From Prevotellaceae bacterium UBA6398 (GTDB lineage Bacteria; Bacteroidota; Bacteroidia; Bacteroidales; Bacteroidaceae), in the NCBI GenBank assembly GCA_002437495.1, contig DJQA01000008.1:128251-152250 (forward strand): a stretch of DNA of 24,000 nt, read 5' to 3'. Below are positions 8,665-24,000 of this stretch, one piece after another (position 1 is the first letter of the stretch; the number at the start of each line of letters is the position of its first letter). The position numbers were made by a program, and so were the translations under genes. The notes under the pieces are model-generated. The model did no database searches and had not been told where the DNA came from. It saw only the letters and a program-made list of their open reading frames with translations.

Positions 8665-8785
8665 AGCCATCGAATTGCGCCGCCATTGGTGCAATAGTTT
8701 GCTTTGTTTGCACGGTGCGGTTCATGCGGCGGAGTAAAGGGCGTATGCCATACGCCCCTACAATTTCCGCAAAACCAATACCGCC
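8665..8785 (+). repeat. REP/BIME-like module, copy A (one intact GC hairpin plus a hairpin-less remnant)
   Basis: The hairpin GGGCGTATGcCATACGCCC lies at 8739-8757. Its flanks, CGGTGCGGTTCATGCGGCGG..(hairpin)..CTACAATTTCCGCAAAACCAATACCGCC, are shared with copies at 11458-11526 and 23818-23886. Positions 8665-8686 match the CAACCAA.GAATTGCGCCRC junction of copies B and E but lack the hairpin. Confidence 0.8.
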
Positions 8786-8909
8786 AAAATTATATTTGAC
8801 ATCGGAAAAACTACATAGGACATAGGAAAAATTATATCAGACATAATTCAATTTACATCAGACCTTTTTTCTCCACTTACAAACGTCTTAAAAACAAAAA
8901 CTTACAAAA
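8786..8909 (+). repeat. Phased 21-nt mini-palindrome array plus T-run plus A-rich tail, copy A
   Basis: A-tract starts at 8786, 8806 and 8827, with the fourth unit starting near 8848. Units include CTACATAGGACATAGG, ATTATATCAGACATAAT and the half-unit TTACATCAGACC followed by T6 (8865-8870). The tail GTCTTAAAAACAAAAACTTACA lies at 8885-8906. Confidence 0.85.
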
Positions 8910-9091: not shown

Positions 9092-11146
9092 TCACCATTT
9101 ATCCTCGGGTTTTGTACCGTTGTAAACGCTCTTGGGTACCCATTCTATGAAATCGGGACCGAAGTTTGCAGGACCGTTGAGCAGCGACTTCATACGCATA
9201 TAATATGTAACTCCGGGGCGGCAGTTCGCAGTTGTTACTATATGGCGCAATTTAGCCCCGCCCGGACCATAGTTTCGCCCACCTTCCGTAACATTTGTCG
9301 AGTTGAAGCCGAAACTGTTCGGGCACTTCATGAAAGTATGGTTGCGCATATTCTTGTCGTTCTCGCGGTTCACGTCGTTATCATCGGGATCGTCCTTTAT
9401 CCAGCCTATTACCGCCTTGTCGGGTTCTATGCGCGCATCAATGGGAAGCCCCACCGCCGTGAGATTGTTTGGGTCTTCCCCAAAATAGAACTGCAACATT
9501 CCGCGACCGCTGTCGTTGCAATAGCCAAGGCGCAATTCATATATTCCTTCGTATGGCACAGGTGGAAGCTGCCACGTTATGTCGTAATATCCTTCAAGCA
9601 CAAAGTCATCGGCCTCGTAGTTAAGCCAGTTGATGTTGTAGTTGTTTATGGATATGAGCAGCGTCTGGTCCGTGAATTTCACTTTGCGCAGATAGCCGGA
9701 GGGAATCATATTGTATATGTTTGTGGGCTGCTGGCGCAGGCCGTTCGTCATAAGCTCATGCTGCATTGTCTGCGTGTCCCAGCGCATACGCTCGTTAAGC
9801 ACCTTGTACCTTACAACATCGTCATATACAAGCACGCCGTCAATCATGTGGTAGAAACCGTTTAGAGCCTGGTTGTCGCGTGTGCCGTTGCCCGACTGCA
9901 CGAGGATTCCCTTTATGGGCACCTCCAGCTCGCGGTAGCTGTCATCGTCATACTCGCTGACATAGCGGTTAATCCTTATCCCTTCTGTCTGCTCGCCGAG
10001 CGTGAACTTCAATATGCGGTGTTCCTTGCCCATAGTCTCGTAATACTCGAACTTGTCTATACCGAGTTGCTCCGGGCGGTTGTATGAATAACCCAACTGT
10101 CCTTTGGTGATGACAATATTATTATATGCCATGCTCACGTCAACTATATGGTATCCCACAAACTGGTTCAAGGCGTTGTCAATACTCGTCGGGTCGTCCG
10201 ACGAAGCATCGGGATAGTATTCTTTCACCTTTTGGTTTATCACAGGCATAACCTCGTCCCAATTAACCACGTTGCCGCCCACAACCTCGAGCTTTATCCC
10301 CCATTCGGCCTCGAGCAAACTGTCGGGCTCAACAAATGCCGTATAACCCCAATTGTGATGTAGGGGTTCGTTGAGCCTTTCGCTGTACCATATATGTTTG
10401 TAGTTCTGCGGGTGATCTTGCAGCTCGTACTCGTCATCACGGTATTTTGCCATGCTGTCGCCCCACGAAGTAACCTCAAGCAGGTGTGAGAAGATTCGTG
10501 TATTGTCCTGCATTCCGAGAAGTCCGGGGAGCGTTGTCGATGCCGGCATTACCACATTGTCAACCACGTGCACCTGCCCGTTCTCCACCTCGTTGTCCGA
10601 GCTTATTATTCGCGAGAAAGTATTGATGCGGGTTATCACCTTGCCGCTATCGTTTGGCTGAAAGTTTATAACAATGTATCTGTCGGCCATGGTCTTAAGC
10701 TGCAGAACGCCCTCCTGGAAGTCGGTTGACTTGTAAGCCTCTACATCACCGTTGTCAATTATGCTGTTGAACACTATAACCTGCGCCAGGGAGTCGCTAA
10801 CCAAGTTTATGTCATAATTGCTTTGGTTTTCAACCGAGTCAACAAACTCTTGTATTGCATCGTTTGTAGGAATGAAACACGTGTAGTTGCCACGGCTTTC
10901 GAGCATGTGGTCCATTGTGGAGCCGCGACCCATTCCGGAACGTGCCTTTTTGAGCAGAATTAGGTATTTGCTCAATTCGGGCTGCTCCTTGACGAAATCC
11001 GCGGCACTCTGCCCTGTGAAAACATAAAGATTCGACTCGTCAATTTTATCCGAACACGAACCGAGCGTTATTCCGGCAACCAACAAAGACACCGCAAGCA
11101 CAAAACGTGCTATCCCTTTTGCAACAATGCAGTCTGAAATTTTCAT
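9092..11146 (-). CDS. Surface lipoprotein with an N-terminal fasciclin (FAS1)-like domain
   Basis: 684-aa ORF with lipoprotein signal ..LLVAGITLGSC followed by SDKIDE. It carries an FAS1 H1 motif (YTCFIPTNDAIQEF), an H2 motif (ENGQVHVVDNVVMP) and a second H2-like motif (LNGFYHMIDGVLVY). I could not assign the C-terminal ~350 aa to a family. Confidence 0.65.
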   Translation of the reverse strand: MKISDCIVAKGIARFVLAVSLLVAGITLGSCSDKIDESNLYVFTGQSAADFVKEQPELSKYLILLKKARSGMGRGSTMDHMLESRGNYTCFIPTNDAIQEFVDSVENQSNYDINLVSDSLAQVIVFNSIIDNGDVEAYKSTDFQEGVLQLKTMADRYIVINFQPNDSGKVITRINTFSRIISSDNEVENGQVHVVDNVVMPASTTLPGLLGMQDNTRIFSHLLEVTSWGDSMAKYRDDEYELQDHPQNYKHIWYSERLNEPLHHNWGYTAFVEPDSLLEAEWGIKLEVVGGNVVNWDEVMPVINQKVKEYYPDASSDDPTSIDNALNQFVGYHIVDVSMAYNNIVITKGQLGYSYNRPEQLGIDKFEYYETMGKEHRILKFTLGEQTEGIRINRYVSEYDDDSYRELEVPIKGILVQSGNGTRDNQALNGFYHMIDGVLVYDDVVRYKVLNERMRWDTQTMQHELMTNGLRQQPTNIYNMIPSGYLRKVKFTDQTLLISINNYNINWLNYEADDFVLEGYYDITWQLPPVPYEGIYELRLGYCNDSGRGMLQFYFGEDPNNLTAVGLPIDARIEPDKAVIGWIKDDPDDNDVNRENDKNMRNHTFMKCPNSFGFNSTNVTEGGRNYGPGGAKLRHIVTTANCRPGVTYYMRMKSLLNGPANFGPDFIEWVPKSVYNGTKPEDKW

Positions 11147-11269: not shown

Positions 11270-11526
11270 CTGCCGTTCTGTATGCCGCGCCGTGCCGACG
11301 GATGCCAATGTACTTCAAGCGGCGGAGTAAAGGGCGTATGCCATACGCCACATAAATACACCGCTCATAATCAACCAACAAATTGCGCCGCTGTAGGGGC
11401 GTATGGCATACGCCCTGAATTGAGCGGATTTGCGGCGTTTGGGCAGCAGTTTGCGACGCGGTTCAAGCGGCGGGGTAAAGGGCGTATGCCATACGCCCCT
11501 ACAATTTCCGCAAAACCAATACCGCC
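11270..11526 (+). repeat. REP/BIME-like cluster, copy B (three GC hairpins in + / inverted / + orientation)
   Basis: Hairpins lie at 11332-11349, 11392-11416 (TGTAGGGGCGTATGGCATACGCCCT) and 11480-11498. Positions 11392-11416 are a perfect 25-nt reverse complement of 11479-11503. The flanks are shared with copies A and E. Confidence 0.85.
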
Positions 11527-11547
11527 CGTTCTTTCTCAAACACTCCC

Positions 11548-11668
11548 AAAATTATATCTGACATCGGAAAAACTACATAGGACGTAGAAAAAATTATGTC
11601 TGATATAATTCAAATTACATCAGACCTTTTTTCGGCCATTACAATCCGCTGAAAAACAAATCGTTATG
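11548..11668 (+). repeat. Phased 21-nt mini-palindrome array plus T-run plus tail, copy B
   Basis: Units are AAAATTATATCTGACATCGG, AAAAACTACATAGGACGTAGA, AAAAATTATGTCTGATATAAT and TCAAATTACATCAGACC followed by T6 (11627-11632). The tail is ..GCTGAAAAACAAATCG. Confidence 0.85.
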
Positions 11669-11783
11669 TGTCTTTCTGTTTGTTTGTGCATTTTTCTGAA
11701 AATCAAAATCTTACGCAAGCCGGAGCGCTCGTGTATCAATCAAAAGCCTAACGGCAAAACTCCGTGTGCATACACAAAACAAA

Positions 11784-15957: not shown

Positions 15958-16049
15958 GCTATAAAAAACGAGAAACGGAAAAGGCGGGGGAAAGGTGTGT
16001 GAGCCGGGGATAAGGTGCTTCAAAAATTCGGGCATGATTGCGCGGTATG

Positions 16050-16115
16050 CATCTGCGGTTCGGGCGATGGCATACATGGCGCGTGGCATGCGCCCCTGCA
16101 AATGTCGCAAAGCGC
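16050..16115 (+). repeat. Degenerate REP-like module, copy C
   Basis: GCGTGGCATGCGCCCCTGCAAATGTCGCAAAGC aligns with GCGTATGCAATACGCCCCTACAAATGGCGCAAAAC of copy E, but the palindrome is eroded. Confidence 0.5.
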
Positions 16116-16145
16116 AAATCGATTGCCCTTGGCAAAACACGCATA

Positions 16146-16266
16146 ATACCATATGGGACATAGAAAAAACCATGTCCCATGTAGAAAAAATCATGTCTGA
16201 TGTAATTAAAACTACATCAAACCTTTTTTTGCCCATTTCAAGTCCTTGAAAAACAAAAACTTGCAC
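16146..16266 (+). repeat. Phased 21-nt mini-palindrome array plus T-run plus tail, copy C
   Basis: Units are CCATATGGGACATAGA, AAAAACCATGTCCCATGTAGA, AAAAATCATGTCTGATGTAAT and TAAAACTACATCAAACC followed by T7 (16224-16230). The tail CCTTGAAAAACAAAAACTTGCA lies at 16244-16265. Confidence 0.8.
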
Positions 16267-16351
16267 TTTATTGCTTATACGTTGTCTTCTTCTTGAAAAC
16301 CAGCATCTTACGGAAATTTCCGCAATATGCGCCAAGCGCATGACACGCCCC

Positions 16352-20414: not shown

Positions 20415-20530
20415 ACAAACATCGCGCTTTTTGCCGCTTATATTTTTTACTGATTTGCATACCAAAATTACCGCACTCCCGGTTTTTCATCCCCCGGCTT
20501 CAGACTGCCGGAAAATTACACCTGAAATAA

Positions 20531-20620
20531 AAAAAACTATGTCTGATGTAGAAAAAACTACGTCAGACGTAGGAAAAATTACATCAGACCTTTTTCCGCC
20601 TTTTTCAAATCTCTTAAACA
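20531..20620 (+). repeat. Phased 21-nt mini-palindrome array plus T-run plus degenerate tail, copy D (three units, no intact REP hairpin)
   Basis: Palindromes are CTATGTctgATGTAG (20537-20551) and CTACGTcagACGTAG (20558-20572). The half-unit TTACATCAGACC (20579-20590) is followed by T5. Unit starts are spaced exactly 21 nt apart. The flanks at 20455-20475 and 20625-20700 retain only fragments of the REP-module linkers (CCAAAATTACCGC, GGATTTGCAATACCGC, AAATTGCGC). Confidence 0.8.
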
Positions 20621-20740
20621 CACGGCGTTACAAGGGCGCGGATTTATTGCATCCACGCATGGATTTGCAATACCGCTTTTCGCAAAATTGCGCATTTATA
20701 GGCATTTTGTGCAAAAAACGGACGATTTTCGACTAAAAAT

Positions 20741-20771
20741 TTTGCCATATAAATCAATAGACTTAATTTTG
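20741..20771 (+). promoter_or_regulatory. Bacteroides-type promoter of acpP-fabF(-rnc)
   Basis: TTTG (20741-20744), a 19-nt spacer, then TAATTTTG (20764-20771). This leaves about 40 nt to the acpP ATG at 20813. Confidence 0.55.
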
Positions 20772-20812
20772 CATCCTGATATAACAATATTATTTATCAA
20801 ATTAGTAAGATC

Positions 20813-21049
20813 ATGTCTGATATCGAATCAAAAGTAAAAGCTATCATTGTTGACAAACTCGGTGTTGATGAAGCCGAAGTAAAGAACGACGCAAGTTTCG
20901 CAAACGATCTGGGCGCTGACTCTCTTGACACTGTAGAGCTCATCATGGAGTTCGAAAAAGAGTTCCAGATTCAGATCCCCGATGACCAGGCAGAGAAAAT
21001 CTCTACCGTGGGCGATGCTATAGCATATATCGAGAAGCACGTTAAGTAA
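20813..21049 (+). CDS. acpP: Acyl carrier protein
   Basis: 78 aa with the phosphopantetheine-attachment motif [20 protein letters not shown]. It sits immediately upstream of fabF. Confidence 0.97.
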
Positions 21050-23636: not shown

Positions 23637-23886
23637 TCTGTATGCGGTGCGGTTCATGCGGCGGCGGGCAGGGCGTATGCAACAAGCATCACGAACGCAC
23701 AAACAGCAATCAACCAAAGAATTGCGCCACTGTAGGGGCGTATGGCATACGCCCTGAATTGCGCGAATTTGCAATGTCGCGGCGCTGGTTTGCGGATTTT
23801 GCGGCGTATTCCCAAATGCGTTTCATGCGGTGGCGTACAGGGCGTATGCAATACGCCCCTACAAATGGCGCAAAACCAATACCGCT
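23635..23886 (+). repeat. REP/BIME-like cluster, copy E (degenerate + / inverted / + hairpins)
   Basis: A degenerate first module lies at 23645-23690 (CGGTGCGGTTCATGCGGCGG..GGGCGTATGCaacaagc). The inverted hairpin TGTAGGGGCGTATGGCATACGCCCT lies at 23731-23755. The third hairpin GGGCGTATgcaATACGCCC lies at 23840-23858. The cluster is collinear with copy B. Confidence 0.85.
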
Positions 23887-24000
23887 AAAACTACATCGGA
23901 TGTAGGAAAAACTACGTCCTATGTAGGAAAAATTATGTCTGATATAATTAAAACTACATCGGACCTTTTTTTGCCTACTTACAACATGCTGAAATTCAAA
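23887..24000 (+). repeat. Phased 21-nt mini-palindrome array plus T-run plus tail, copy E (tail cut by the window end)
   Basis: Palindromes are CTACATcggATGTAG (23891-23905), CTACGTcctATGTAG (23912-23926) and ATTATGTctgATATAAT (23932-23948). The half-unit CTACATCGGACC is followed by T7 (23966-23972). Confidence 0.85.

Follow-up and report, generated by a model that had tools for sequence, protein, structure and literature searches.

The question raised by this locus is what the short, strictly periodic array of imperfect palindromes at positions 11546–11670 represents, given that sequences of the same design recur between the genes of the same stretch of DNA, i.e., the whole 24,000-nucleotide sequence from Prevotellaceae bacterium UBA6398, which we refer to as the window. 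An earlier note on this DNA had described five such copies, with their positions, as a dispersed family that it did not recognize as any named type of RNA or repeat, and the family proved genuine, all five copies being present there on the + strand. A profile HMM that was built from 83 copies of other genomes, with the window left out, returned exactly five strong matches in the window (E 8e-33 to 1e-24), each of which has the + orientation and sits between genes. Tandem Repeats Finder reported a period of 21 at 8786–8845, 16161–16212, 20522–20589 and 23887–23963. When the entire window was compared to Rfam with cmscan (E ≤ 1), no array was matched; the sole match was an S15 leader at 20767–20872, on the start of acpP, with 21.8 bits versus a gathering score of 39.5, and the tRNA scan found no tRNA in the window. 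The open reading frames that overlap the repeats have no Pfam match, in agreement with the suggestion that the arrays contain no conserved reading frame. We conclude that a single intergenic repeat, which is non-coding, lineage-specific and of high copy number, is present at all five sites.

Each copy in the window starts with an A-run that is followed by three 15-nt quasi-palindromes in an exact 21-nt register, and continues with a truncated fourth unit (YTACATCRRACC), a run of T5–7 and a conserved tail of ~45 nt. The half-unit that runs into the T-run and the conserved tail, the unit starts at 20537, 20558 and 20579, and the loops CGG, CTG, CAG, CCT and AGG had all been noticed before, and can be read directly from the sequence. 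The terminal motif TACATCRRACCTTTTT occurs five times versus 0.04 expected, and five occurrences were reached in 0 of 100 shuffles. In the focal copy, copy B (11546–11670, + strand, HMM E 8e-33), an A-run precedes unit 1 (11552–11566, TTATATCTGACATCG), followed by unit 2 (11573–11587, CTACATAGGACGTAG), unit 3 (11594–11608, TTATGTCTGATATAA), the truncated unit 4 (11615–11626, TTACATCAGACC) and T6 (11627–11632); the tail, which includes CTGAAAAACAAATCGTTA, then runs to ~11670. Copy A (8783–8909, + strand, E 7e-29) has its units at 8790–8804, 8811–8825 and 8832–8846 and the truncated unit 4 at 8853–8864, with T6 and the tail after it. Unit 3 of this copy is in a “flipped” state (TTATATCAGACATAA) and, therefore, there is no unit 3/unit 4 hairpin; the fold of the + strand is at the shuffle level (z 0.0). 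Copy C (16145–16267, + strand, E 1.7e-28), an array with its tail, has the terminator of an ECF-S gene on one side and the promoter of ahcY on the other. Copy D (20509–20637, + strand, E 1.2e-24), an array without a REP hairpin, is a recombinant in which the left part of one array is joined to the tail of a second; in the sister species, an AraC-family gene is flanked by two arrays in direct orientation. Copy E (23884–24000, + strand, E 2.7e-31) comprises an array and the start of a tail, the rest being cut off by the end of the window; its neighbors are rnc (+) and, outside the window, a convergently oriented gene for an M13 peptidase, a context taken from loci L102–L107.

A second module, a REP-like hairpin (GGGCGTATGCCATACGCCC), adjoins copies A, B and E on their left, is degenerate near copy C and is absent at copy D; the earlier note had described the array as usually fused to the 3' side of this module, with no intact hairpin at copy D. 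The core left of copy A (8739–8757) reads GGGCGTATGCCATACGCCC and then CTAC. Left of copy B there is an inverted, REPIN-like doublet with the GTAG tags outside (11397–11498; cores 11397–11415 and 11480–11498) and a third core at 11332–11350, while copy E has an inverted doublet at 23736–23858 (cores 23736–23754 and 23840–23858). The degenerate REP left of copy C (16040–16105, GGCGCGTGGCATGCGCCCCTGC) was assigned by alignment. A search with the core pattern gave 12 strand-matches at six sites of the window versus 0 expected. GTAG-type REPs are GC-rich palindromes of 20–40 bp with GTAG at one end, extragenic and of high copy number; the GTAG lies outside the GC-rich stem, and the units are single or form inverted dimers, head-to-tail arrangements being rare (PMC3733652). 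The left-hand module is of this type, with GGGCGTATGCNATACGCCC followed by CTAC at six sites of the window, and its doublets, with GTAG tags outside and inverted arms of ~37 nt, have the structure of REPINs; it resembles the REPIN/RAYT system likewise in an 8-bp GC-rich stem with a loop of 3–4 nt. Vertical persistence, as found for the present repeat, is also described for REPINs. The array itself, however, is not a REP: CTAC and GTAG form the base of the stem and thus lie inside it, the stems are AU-rich and only 6 bp long with two non-Watson–Crick positions, and one unit follows another strictly head-to-tail every 21 nt. A tblastn search with E. coli RAYT and IS200 TnpA sequences found no match in ~0.7 Mb of sampled loci, which is a weak test given the distant queries. 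In the sampled loci, there are 136 REP cores, 82% of them GTAG-tagged; a core lies within 350 nt to the left of 55 of the 111 arrays only and REP-less species carry homologous arrays, so that the array is indeed separable from the REP module, as had been proposed.

Further copies, for which the earlier note had suggested a search, are numerous: the sampled loci and the window together contain 111, with more than 100 across three related MAGs, and all copies found are intergenic. The host is an uncultured gut Bacteroidales clade that includes the window species, its sister UBA6858 (titled Prevotellaceae by NCBI) and at least two further MAGs; GCA_002405135.1, which belongs to the window species, has the same region. 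There is ~1 copy per 5 kb in the window, four arrays lie in 21 kb of locus L109, and MAG contigs break at the repeat. The consensus of a copy, ~125 bp in length, has A4–5 and then three 15-nt units YTAYRT-NNN-AYRTAR with 6-nt A-rich spacers in a 21-nt register, followed by the spacer TTCAAAC, the truncated fourth unit YTACATCAGACC, T5–8 (mostly T6 or T7) and the conserved tail, CGCC..TTGCAA..CTGAAAAACAAA..TTAC. In the composite consensus, drawn from 78 copies, the order is REP doublet, linker, optional 21-nt segment, array, T-run and tail.

The reported period of about 21 nt turned out to be a strict phase. The alignment of 86 copies over 85 columns has zero gaps, although the mean identity over the array is 81.5%, i.e., the copies have diverged by ~18% and are still without indels in these columns. 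Exactly three units plus unit 4 in register are found in 77 of 85 copies, and the spacers between units are constant at 6 nt. Directly 3' of unit 4, there is a 1-nt length polymorphism in ~30% of copies; the contrast between the T-run length and the fixed spacers is weaker than it first seemed, because some of this variation is C-to-T substitution and not an indel. The optional linker segment is exactly 21 nt long, which yields distances of 21 versus 42, and the A-run of the tail lies ~64 nt (about three periods) past the third A-run. The outer arm positions and T6/A10 are conserved, variation being confined to the Y-R steps at ±3,4. The orientation of the array is independent of the neighboring genes: on the tail side, 46 genes share the strand of the array and 55 are on the opposite strand, and the corresponding numbers for the REP side are 43 and 37. 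One or more genes read into the element in 56 of the 66 fully flanked copies; location between convergent genes is not enriched (18/71), and divergent promoter regions are mildly depleted (11/71). The shared orientation of all five copies in the window prompted the idea of a replication-strand-specific (IS200/IS605-like) behavior, but copies facing either way occur together in many of the 8-kb loci, and the idea was rejected.

The earlier note had also interpreted changes in the arms as compensatory. Its two quoted examples are accurate, yet the arms show no covariation across the 86 aligned copies: pairing within units amounts to 85.4%, compared to 88.1% after shuffling, and covariation scores 0.111 versus 0.178, the observed score being equaled or exceeded in all 500 shuffles. 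A structured-RNA test on units 3 and 4 revealed zero pairs altered on both sides, G.T or A.C is found at most of the inner Y-R positions, the counts of G.U and A.C being balanced, and the pairing between units barely exceeds the permutation null. The variation consists of inversions of the whole unit core, which yield exact reverse complements and are seen even in orthologous copies of sister species; the loops invert on the same strand as well (AGG to CCT, CTG to CAG). CpG deamination was rejected as the main cause of the Y-R variation, because the loop orientation flips along with the arms. Template switching has been documented to invert hairpin loops in place (PMC8794818), and the core inversions probably arose in this way, when replication switched templates at the hairpin. 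Units 3 and 4 are complementary in only 43 of 85 copies, and in 35 copies unit 3 directly repeats unit 4, so that the canonical hairpin at the end of the array is not maintained. Neighboring units tend to share an orientation and not to be inverted (Q'R 32 and QR' 13 versus Q'R' 16 and QR 8). A conserved long hairpin between units 1 and 2, which single folds suggested, was rejected, since the permutation of partners gave nearly equal complementarity and adjacent units tend to be co-oriented.

The folding of the element is well above the background. Compared to dinucleotide shuffles, z is below −2 for 88% of the 86 copies on the + strand and for 99% on the − strand (mean z −4.8 and −5.5, respectively), which is true of both flip states; among the five copies in the window, four have significant folds on each strand. 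The terminator scan flagged copies B and C, in which unit 4 paired with unit 3 is followed by a T-run: the minus strand of copy B contains a 12-bp hairpin and then a T-run at 11625–11598, and the minus-strand hairpin of copy C is at 16222–16195 (minus-strand fold −42.8 kcal/mol, z −5.9). On the + strand, the unit 3/unit 4 stem stands directly 5' of T6–7, where it is present. Single units on the minus strand are too weak as terminators, and the stems of the window family are AU-rich and weak by terminator standards. A canonical GC-rich terminator is already located between the upstream gene and the array at the ECF-S gene of the window, and the same is found before the arrays at yfhO (L109, L111) and priA (L194). 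Copies toward which a gene is transcribed from the side of the tail show only a weak enrichment of the hairpin-competent state (odds ratio 2.3, p = 0.08).

A comparison can be made to relatives without REPs, whose homologous 21-nt arrays occupy the same two sites, upstream of ahcY and downstream of yfhO; the array is, therefore, older than its association with REPs. The arrays of L109/L192 and L111 are homologous to the family in the same orientation (nhmmer E 7e-11, 5e-5 and 3e-3), and their unit sequences are entirely different from those of the window family. The design of the REP-less arrays is that of the family: after an A-run, an arm X is present one to three times in direct orientation, and then come the spacer TTCAAA, an inverted arm X', a T-run and the tail. 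The stem arms are TTCCAAGGCATCTAA / TTAGATGCCTTGGAA in L109 and CTACATTTGAGA / TCTCAAATGTAG and CTACAAGGCACATG / CATGTGCTTTGTAG in L111, while L194 has two copies of TCTGCAAGCACTGCAGA and then its reverse complement, and the stems at all three loci are bounded by an A-run and a T-run. The stems of the REP-less relatives are perfect over 12–23 bp, with fold z of −2.8 to −8.5, and z is −5 or below on both strands in three of four arrays (L109, L111 upstream of ahcY, and L194). The period of 21 is retained in arrays of unrelated units; no fewer than three types of unit are found within 21 kb of L109, the units of L109 and L194 are not palindromic, and the spacers of the relatives are TTTAAA or TTTGAA. 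The AhcY identity is 89–93% among the species with homologous arrays at the same two sites. A relative with 86% identity has a similar A-run/palindrome/T-run element downstream of yfhO, and a metagenome scan with AhcY returned only relatives at ≤81% identity, without arrays.

Both flanks were matched in another species in 22 cases, all 22 with a comparable stretch between them; no empty site was found among these cross-species cases, and all eight aligned pairs carry the array. Hence the copies are retained at orthologous sites across species, and the unit cores invert in place. There is also a gene-conversion-like patch between strains, and one unit has been replaced between close strains; around the window, a gene has been lost in one case and a segment inverted in place in another. 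Such sequence patterns suggest that the copies are homogenized through gene conversion and act as substrates for deletion and inversion.

These features make the unannotated repeat an unusual relative of known bacterial intergenic repeats, not a new kind of gene. It is a composite of modules that also occur separately, and we assign it to a BIME/BOX-like mosaic class, in the functional sense and not by homology. BIMEs of E. coli combine REP (PU) sequences with short accessory motifs, including those of the IHF-binding RIB/RIP type, and effects on transcription attenuation and mRNA ends, as well as the binding of architectural proteins, have been reported. In BIMEs, likewise, a GTAG-tagged REP hairpin, often an inverted doublet, is joined to short motifs in a composite extragenic repeat, with hundreds of copies between genes in either orientation. 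However, BIMEs belong to another phylum, have no sequence homology to the present repeat and are not known to contain anything like its 21-nt-phased mini-palindrome array with a T-run and a 45-nt tail; moreover, related species have the array but no REPs. BOX elements of Streptococcus pneumoniae (boxA - boxB(n) - boxC) are similarly modular, dispersed and non-coding, with a tandem inner subunit between conserved ends and predicted stem-loops, but boxB is 45 nt long with a copy number of 0 to 8, whereas the unit described here is 21 nt and its number is nearly fixed (three plus the truncated one); there is no homology.

Several mobile or replicative elements were considered as well. Plasmid iterons and the site arrays of Tn7 and Mu are also direct repeats with a period of 21–22 bp, i.e., two helical turns, typical of iterons and of TnsB or MuA sites, and the earlier note accordingly raised a Tn7-like transposon end with multiple transposase-binding sites or an iteron-like platform. 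The context of the arrays is wrong for such elements in every respect tested, and we consider a transposon end or a plasmid-type iteron origin highly improbable. Tn7/Mu-like ends are two inverted ends with site arrays around transposition genes and a target-site duplication; the arrays found here are single, paired inverted ends around cargo are missing, pairs within a locus face either way around ordinary housekeeping genes, and no transposase gene was detected nearby. An iteron origin is one locus per replicon by a rep gene, with an AT-rich unwinding element, DnaA boxes and one iteron sequence. The window alone has five copies in its 24 kb and the sampled loci have more than 100, with housekeeping genes around them; the chromosomal copies number in the hundreds, no rep genes are nearby, and the unit sequences differ between the arrays of related genomes. 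Searches of plasmid, phage and IMG/VR collections gave no real match, the five viral pattern matches being chance or ordinary terminators. A MITE was rejected because the consensus of 78 copies has no terminal inverted repeats and the both-flank comparisons contain no empty site. CRISPR arrays have repeats of 24–48 bp, unique spacers of similar length and cas genes, and were rejected given the total period of 21 nt, the 6-nt A-rich spacers, three to four units and no cas genes nearby. Integron-like cassettes were rejected because housekeeping genes lie between the copies and the orientations vary.

Of the readings that do fit the context, the one we prefer, with a probability of about 40%, is that of a persistent, DNA-level, BIME/BOX-like modular repeat that most likely acts as a bidirectional terminator-like insulator. 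The properties conserved in the repeat are best read as the 21-nt phase and the formation of hairpins on either strand. Bidirectional intrinsic (Rho-independent) terminators likewise have an A-tract, a palindromic stem and a T-tract, and, because of this arrangement, either strand gives a hairpin and then a U-run. The core palindrome between the A-run and the T-run would provide this geometry, and the reiterated quasi-palindromic arms could form several alternative stems on either strand, so that the element would work as a DNA-encoded structural “punctuation” in either orientation. The likeliest effect would be to stop or insulate read-through transcription from both sides, or to protect RNA 3' ends; such effects on transcripts are known for REP/BIME elements and bidirectional terminators. 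However, the arrays differ from ordinary terminators in being homologous copies of one family with conserved flanks and extra in-register copies of one arm. The terminal hairpin of the window family is intact in about half of the copies, without unit 3/4 covariation, the stems are weak, adjacent units are co-oriented rather than inverted, and a separate GC-rich terminator often precedes the array; the enrichment of the hairpin-competent state is weak, and that between convergent genes is absent. The strict 21-bp phase suggests an additional constraint at the DNA level that is unexplained by the terminator model, and a terminator role likewise does not account for the constant number of units or for the conservation of the 45-nt tail.

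The phase is what a DNA scaffold would explain, in which the dyad-symmetric 15-bp units and the A-tracts, repeated every two turns, bind a dimeric or oligomeric protein, possibly nucleoid-associated or gyrase-like as for E. coli BIMEs, or bend the DNA; this is the iteron-like platform of the earlier note minus the origin. We regard this as the main rival reading, possible if rather unlikely. It is consistent with the gap-free alignment of divergent copies, the fixed spacers and unit number next to the polymorphism after unit 4, the exact 21-nt linker, the distance to the A-run of the tail, the conserved outer arms and T6/A10 with variable Y-R steps, the independence of orientation from genes, and the period kept by arrays of unrelated units, and the apparent neutrality of the core flips is what a symmetric site for a dimer would predict. 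Nevertheless, unit sequences vary between the arrays of one related genome and some units are non-palindromic; therefore, no single recognition sequence exists across the class. Moreover, the spacers of the relatives are not bending A-tracts, the phase could be inherited and maintained by gene conversion, and there is no candidate protein. Gene conversion, together with slippage duplication of arm and loop and template switching, would also produce the regular features as by-products in a selfish or neutral non-autonomous repeat that spread with or beside REPINs and has no host function. This reading is doubtful: high copy number, the breaks of MAG contigs, physical linkage to GTAG-REP doublets, exchange between strains, deletion and in-place inversion at the repeat, no selection for specific pairings and the mild depletion from divergent promoter regions point to it, whereas presence/absence polymorphism is not seen where both flanks are matched, homologous arrays (or, in the 86% relative, a similar element) keep the same sites across species, indels are absent despite the divergence, and neither terminal inverted repeats nor, in the weak test over the sampled ~0.7 Mb, a transposase was found. 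Much less probable is a family of small trans-acting or protein-sponging RNAs with multiple hairpins, A-/U-rich linkers and a promoter in the tail. The strong folding and a tail motif, TCAG-N12-GCGAAAA, located upstream of the array in the T-rich orientation also in distant relatives, would fit; however, inspection of the repeat consensus by eye found no Bacteroidetes promoter (−33 TTTG / −7 TAnnTTTG) in the tail or linker, the loops invert on the same strand, and there is neither a strand-specific G.U signal nor an Rfam match. It should be noted that small open reading frames in the tail are not conserved.

Thus, the repeat is not a protein-coding gene, a known RNA family, an iteron origin or a transposon end, and a bidirectional terminator-like insulator of the BIME/BOX-like kind is the reading that we favor. 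More tentatively, the comparison of arrays among relatives hints that an undescribed intergenic class, with a host function and an obligatory 21-bp register, may extend across the clade, the window family being one of its branches. Members of such a class would share the order of A-run, direct arm copies, inverted arm, T-run and tail and would occupy the same intergenic sites across genera, with their unit sequences fully replaced by in-place inversion and conversion between arrays. They would either insulate transcription in both directions or serve as a phased platform that a Bacteroidales chromosomal protein binds or wraps. If true, this would be a structurally distinct counterpart of enterobacterial BIMEs.

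Non-coding repeats of the host phylum have hardly been described. If our census is representative, the repeat and its REP partner fill a large share of the intergenic DNA in a group of uncultured gut Bacteroidales, where the repeat breaks MAG assemblies, draws spurious ORF calls and promotes deletions and inversions. It also represents a natural experiment, since the cores of the hairpins are inverted and exchanged while the register and the flanks are fixed, and thus offers a clean system for the study of template-switch mutation and concerted evolution; furthermore, it could be used to test whether the two-turn phase means a protein scaffold or transcriptional insulation.

We applied a profile HMM of the family, trained on 83 copies from other genomes with the window left out, and obtained exactly five strong matches in the window (copies A to E, at 8783-8909, 11546-11670, 16145-16267, 20509-20637 and 23884-23999), with E-values from 8e-33 (11546-11670) to 1e-24 (20509-20637). 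All are intergenic and on the plus strand, which confirms the five copies of the earlier note, and the unit starts, loop sequences, terminal half-unit and tail read from the sequence are as described there. Tandem Repeats Finder called period-21 arrays at four of the five copies, and the window has five instances of the terminal motif TACATCRRACCTTTTT, compared to 0.04 expected by chance. The suggestion that the array lies outside named RNA families also held, the window arrays having no match in Rfam. The sole Rfam match in the window at E<=1 is an S15 leader at 20767-20872 that scores 21.8 bits, below the gathering score of 39.5; it lies across the beginning of the gene for acyl carrier protein and is a false positive. 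The genes around the arrays are ordinary Bacteroidota chromosomal genes, encoding a SusC-like receptor, two fasciclin-domain proteins, YfhO, AhcY, an ECF-S component, DUF1893 and two Fe-S proteins, together with acpP, fabF and rnc. Public gene calls and a mechanical ORF list place "hypothetical proteins" of 84-119 aa on DNA of the array and of the REP, a GTAG-tagged hairpin module (window 11282-11587, 15995-16249 and 23642-23905; 1621-1980, 9666-9920 and 17633-17950 in L102, a locus of the same species); since none of these ORFs has a Pfam match, they are probably spurious.

In the consensus of 78 copies, the composite consists of an REP doublet, a linker, an optional segment that is exactly 21 nt long, the array, a T-run and a tail. 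The doublet is inverted (GTAGGGGCGTATGGCATACGCCC ... GGGCGTATGCAATACGCCCCTAC) and is joined by the linker CAAATGGCGCAAAACCAAWA to an array of the form A4-5, unit 1, GGAAAA, unit 2, GAAAAA, unit 3, TTCAAAC, unit 4 (TACATCAGACC) and T6-7, followed by the tail CGCC..TTGCAA..CTGAAAAACAAA..TTAC. The array alignment is gap-free (86 copies by 85 columns), and 77 of 85 copies contain exactly three full units in register. By sequence criteria the REP module belongs with GTAG-tagged REPs and REPINs; about 0.7 Mb of sampled loci gave no RAYT hit with distant queries. The array follows a logic like that of BIME accessory motifs and of boxB, the repeated subunit of BOX elements in pneumococci, but is homologous to neither. 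Of the REP cores in the sampled loci, 74% are no more than 350 nt away from an array. An REP core stands to the left of just half of the arrays, and arrays are carried by REP-less relatives; thus, the array is indeed separable from the REP, as had been proposed. Orientation relative to neighboring genes is random (46 versus 55 on the tail side, 43 versus 37 on the REP side), and the 71 fully flanked copies lie between 42 tandem, 18 convergent and 11 divergent gene pairs. Some 45-60 nt past the first copy of the motif CTGAAAAnCAAAnnnTTAC, the tail has another, weaker one (window 11649-11668 and 11696-11716; 16244-16265 and 16290-16312).

A 20-nt pattern was used to scan species-representative genomes, and among the matches listed nearly all real ones fall in three MAGs, namely Prevotellaceae bacterium UBA6858, a Hadza-gut "Bacteroidaceae" MAG and a MAG titled Oscillospiraceae; the other listed matches, in unrelated taxa, have no array and are due to chance. 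The third MAG ("Oscillospiraceae bacterium H07624-L1_cleanbin_000029", CAVCON01, loci L002-L097) has this Bacteroidales repeat in dozens of copies, with flanking DNA that shares 95-98% identity with that of the Hadza MAG (e.g., L043 versus L086), and its label is probably wrong. Many copies are found at contig ends (e.g., L014 21-40; L033 19-38; L047 53-72 and 5202-5221; L052 53-72 and 2969-2988), and many MAG contigs start or stop within an array, so that the repeat breaks up assemblies made from short reads of these genomes.

The window species is the one in GCA_002405135.1 and several ENA assemblies, and six strains of it have identical arrays but for a patch in copy E. There, window 23946-23975 differs from L102 and L104-L107 (ATTAAAACTACATCGGACCTTTTTTTG versus ATTCAAACTACATCAGACCTTTTTCTG) by four clustered changes towards the family consensus, which looks like gene conversion; the other four arrays are unchanged, save a 1-nt difference in A-run length beside copy D in L103. 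L108, which represents the sister species, matches UBA6858 contigs at 100% identity in each of the two loci that were compared. Both flanks matched another species' locus in 22 comparisons, each with a comparable stretch between the flanks and none with an empty site, and the array is present in all eight aligned orthologous pairs. Divergence between orthologs falls mainly in the cores and takes the form of whole flips; the spacers stay in place. There are 0.33 differences per site at the inner Y-R positions and in the loop, 0.12 in the outer arms, 0.14 in the spacers and 0.02 at T6/A10.

The earlier note considered the arm changes to be compensatory, and formal pair counting on the 86-copy alignment against shuffles contradicts this. 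Within-unit hairpins have 85.4% paired cells (shuffled mean 88.1%) and a covariation score of 0.111 (shuffled 0.178), with 500 of 500 shuffles equal to or above the observed value on both measures; for unit 3 with unit 4 the values are 65.9% (66.0%) and 0.002 (0.002). G.T and A.C predominate at the inner Y-R positions, and overall neither strand is favored. The variable feature is the orientation of the whole unit core: unit 2 occurs as CTATGTCCTATGTAG or, exactly reverse-complemented, as CTACATAGGACATAG, unit 3 occurs as TTATGTCTGATATAA or TTATATCAGACATAA, units 3 and 4 are complementary in 43 copies and direct copies in 35, and adjacent units tend to share orientation. Because each unit is itself a quasi-palindrome, folding is far stronger than in dinucleotide shuffles for both flip states (in 88% of copies on the plus strand and 99% on the minus strand). 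In-place inversion of hairpin loops by template switching during replication has been documented (PMC8794818), and template switching is the likely mechanism of the core flips.

Larger rearrangements were found as well. In the sister species (L108 3927-5425), an AraC-family regulator gene lies between two arrays in direct orientation, whereas copy D (20509-20637) combines the left part of one array with the tail of the other, and the gene is absent; copy D lacks an REP because it is a recombinant of two arrays. This looks like a deletion mediated by the repeats or, alternatively, an insertion that took place in the sister species. The composite upstream of ahcY (REP, array and tail; window 16040-16330) is the opposite way round in L108 (~9590-9880), with an inverted match that is clear over 209 nt (74% identity) and apparently reaches ~290 nt between collinear flanks, reflecting either in-place inversion or re-insertion.

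The loci of three relatives (L109/L192, L111 and L194; AhcY 93%, 89% and 86% identical to the window) contain neither REPs nor window-type units, but do contain period-21 arrays: L109 2178-2240, 9788-9870, 14199-14255 and 16694-16753 (four in 21 kb), L194 4399-4493, 14160-14226 and 18412-18469, and L111 9668-9735 and 14262-14350. Two of them share sites and orientation with copies C (upstream of ahcY) and B (downstream of yfhO), and the family HMM detects such same-site arrays (E-values 7e-11, 5e-5 and 3e-3); therefore, the array module is older than its link to the REP. The units are unrelated in sequence (TTCCAAGGCATCTAA; CTACATTTGAGA; CTACAAGGCACATG; TCTGCAAGCACTGCAGA), with a common design of GCGAAAA, arm X, TTTGAA, inverted arm X', a T-rich spacer and further arm copies, and the tail motif TCAG-N12-GCGAAAA is kept. 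Their predicted hairpins are near-perfect (12-23 bp, A-run paired with T-run, several perfect palindromes), with fold z of -2.8 to -8.5, at or below -5 on both strands in three of four arrays folded; the L109 array upstream of ahcY is decayed (z about -0.5). Judged by these sequences, the array retains period and geometry while its unit sequence turns over. Between the close strains L192 and L109 (14210-14245, downstream of yfhO), the third unit is swapped (CTAGATGCCTTGGAG -> TTTGGTGGCCCGGAG) within identical flanks, and the new unit resembles the reverse complement of one in the ahcY-upstream array. In L193 (14154-14320; AhcY 90% identical), the yfhO-downstream site has tRNA-Gly(GCC) and tRNA-Leu(TAA) and no array.

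As to function, we infer from conserved traits, at a probability of about 0.4, that the element may be a structural, orientation-independent terminator-like or insulator element. The conserved traits are the capacity to form hairpins on either strand between A-run and T-run flanks, which gives the geometry of a bidirectional intrinsic terminator, the exact 21-nt register with its unit number, and the tail. Copies B and C are picked up by a simple terminator scan; however, about half of the family lacks an intact terminal hairpin, the array is often preceded by a GC-rich terminator, and competence to form the hairpin shows only a weak association with genes reading in (odds ratio 2.3, p = 0.08). 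A phased, dyad-symmetric DNA scaffold would fit the invariant 21-nt phase and the neutrality of core flips, but the variety of units found within related genomes speaks against one sequence-specific protein, and we regard this account as somewhat unlikely. That the repeat is purely selfish or neutral is also unlikely. An sRNA family is improbable, the absence of within-unit covariation and of strand preference ruling out an RNA on a defined strand. A transposon end, for which Tn7-like elements had been offered earlier as an analogy, or an iteron origin is highly improbable, given the ordinary chromosomal neighbors, random orientation, no empty site seen and no match in plasmid, phage or viral collections.

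With high confidence, the element is a persistent, non-coding, modular intergenic repeat. In the literature searched, we found no description that combines its features of a 21-nt register, a nearly fixed unit number, in-place core inversion and an architecture conserved across genera.
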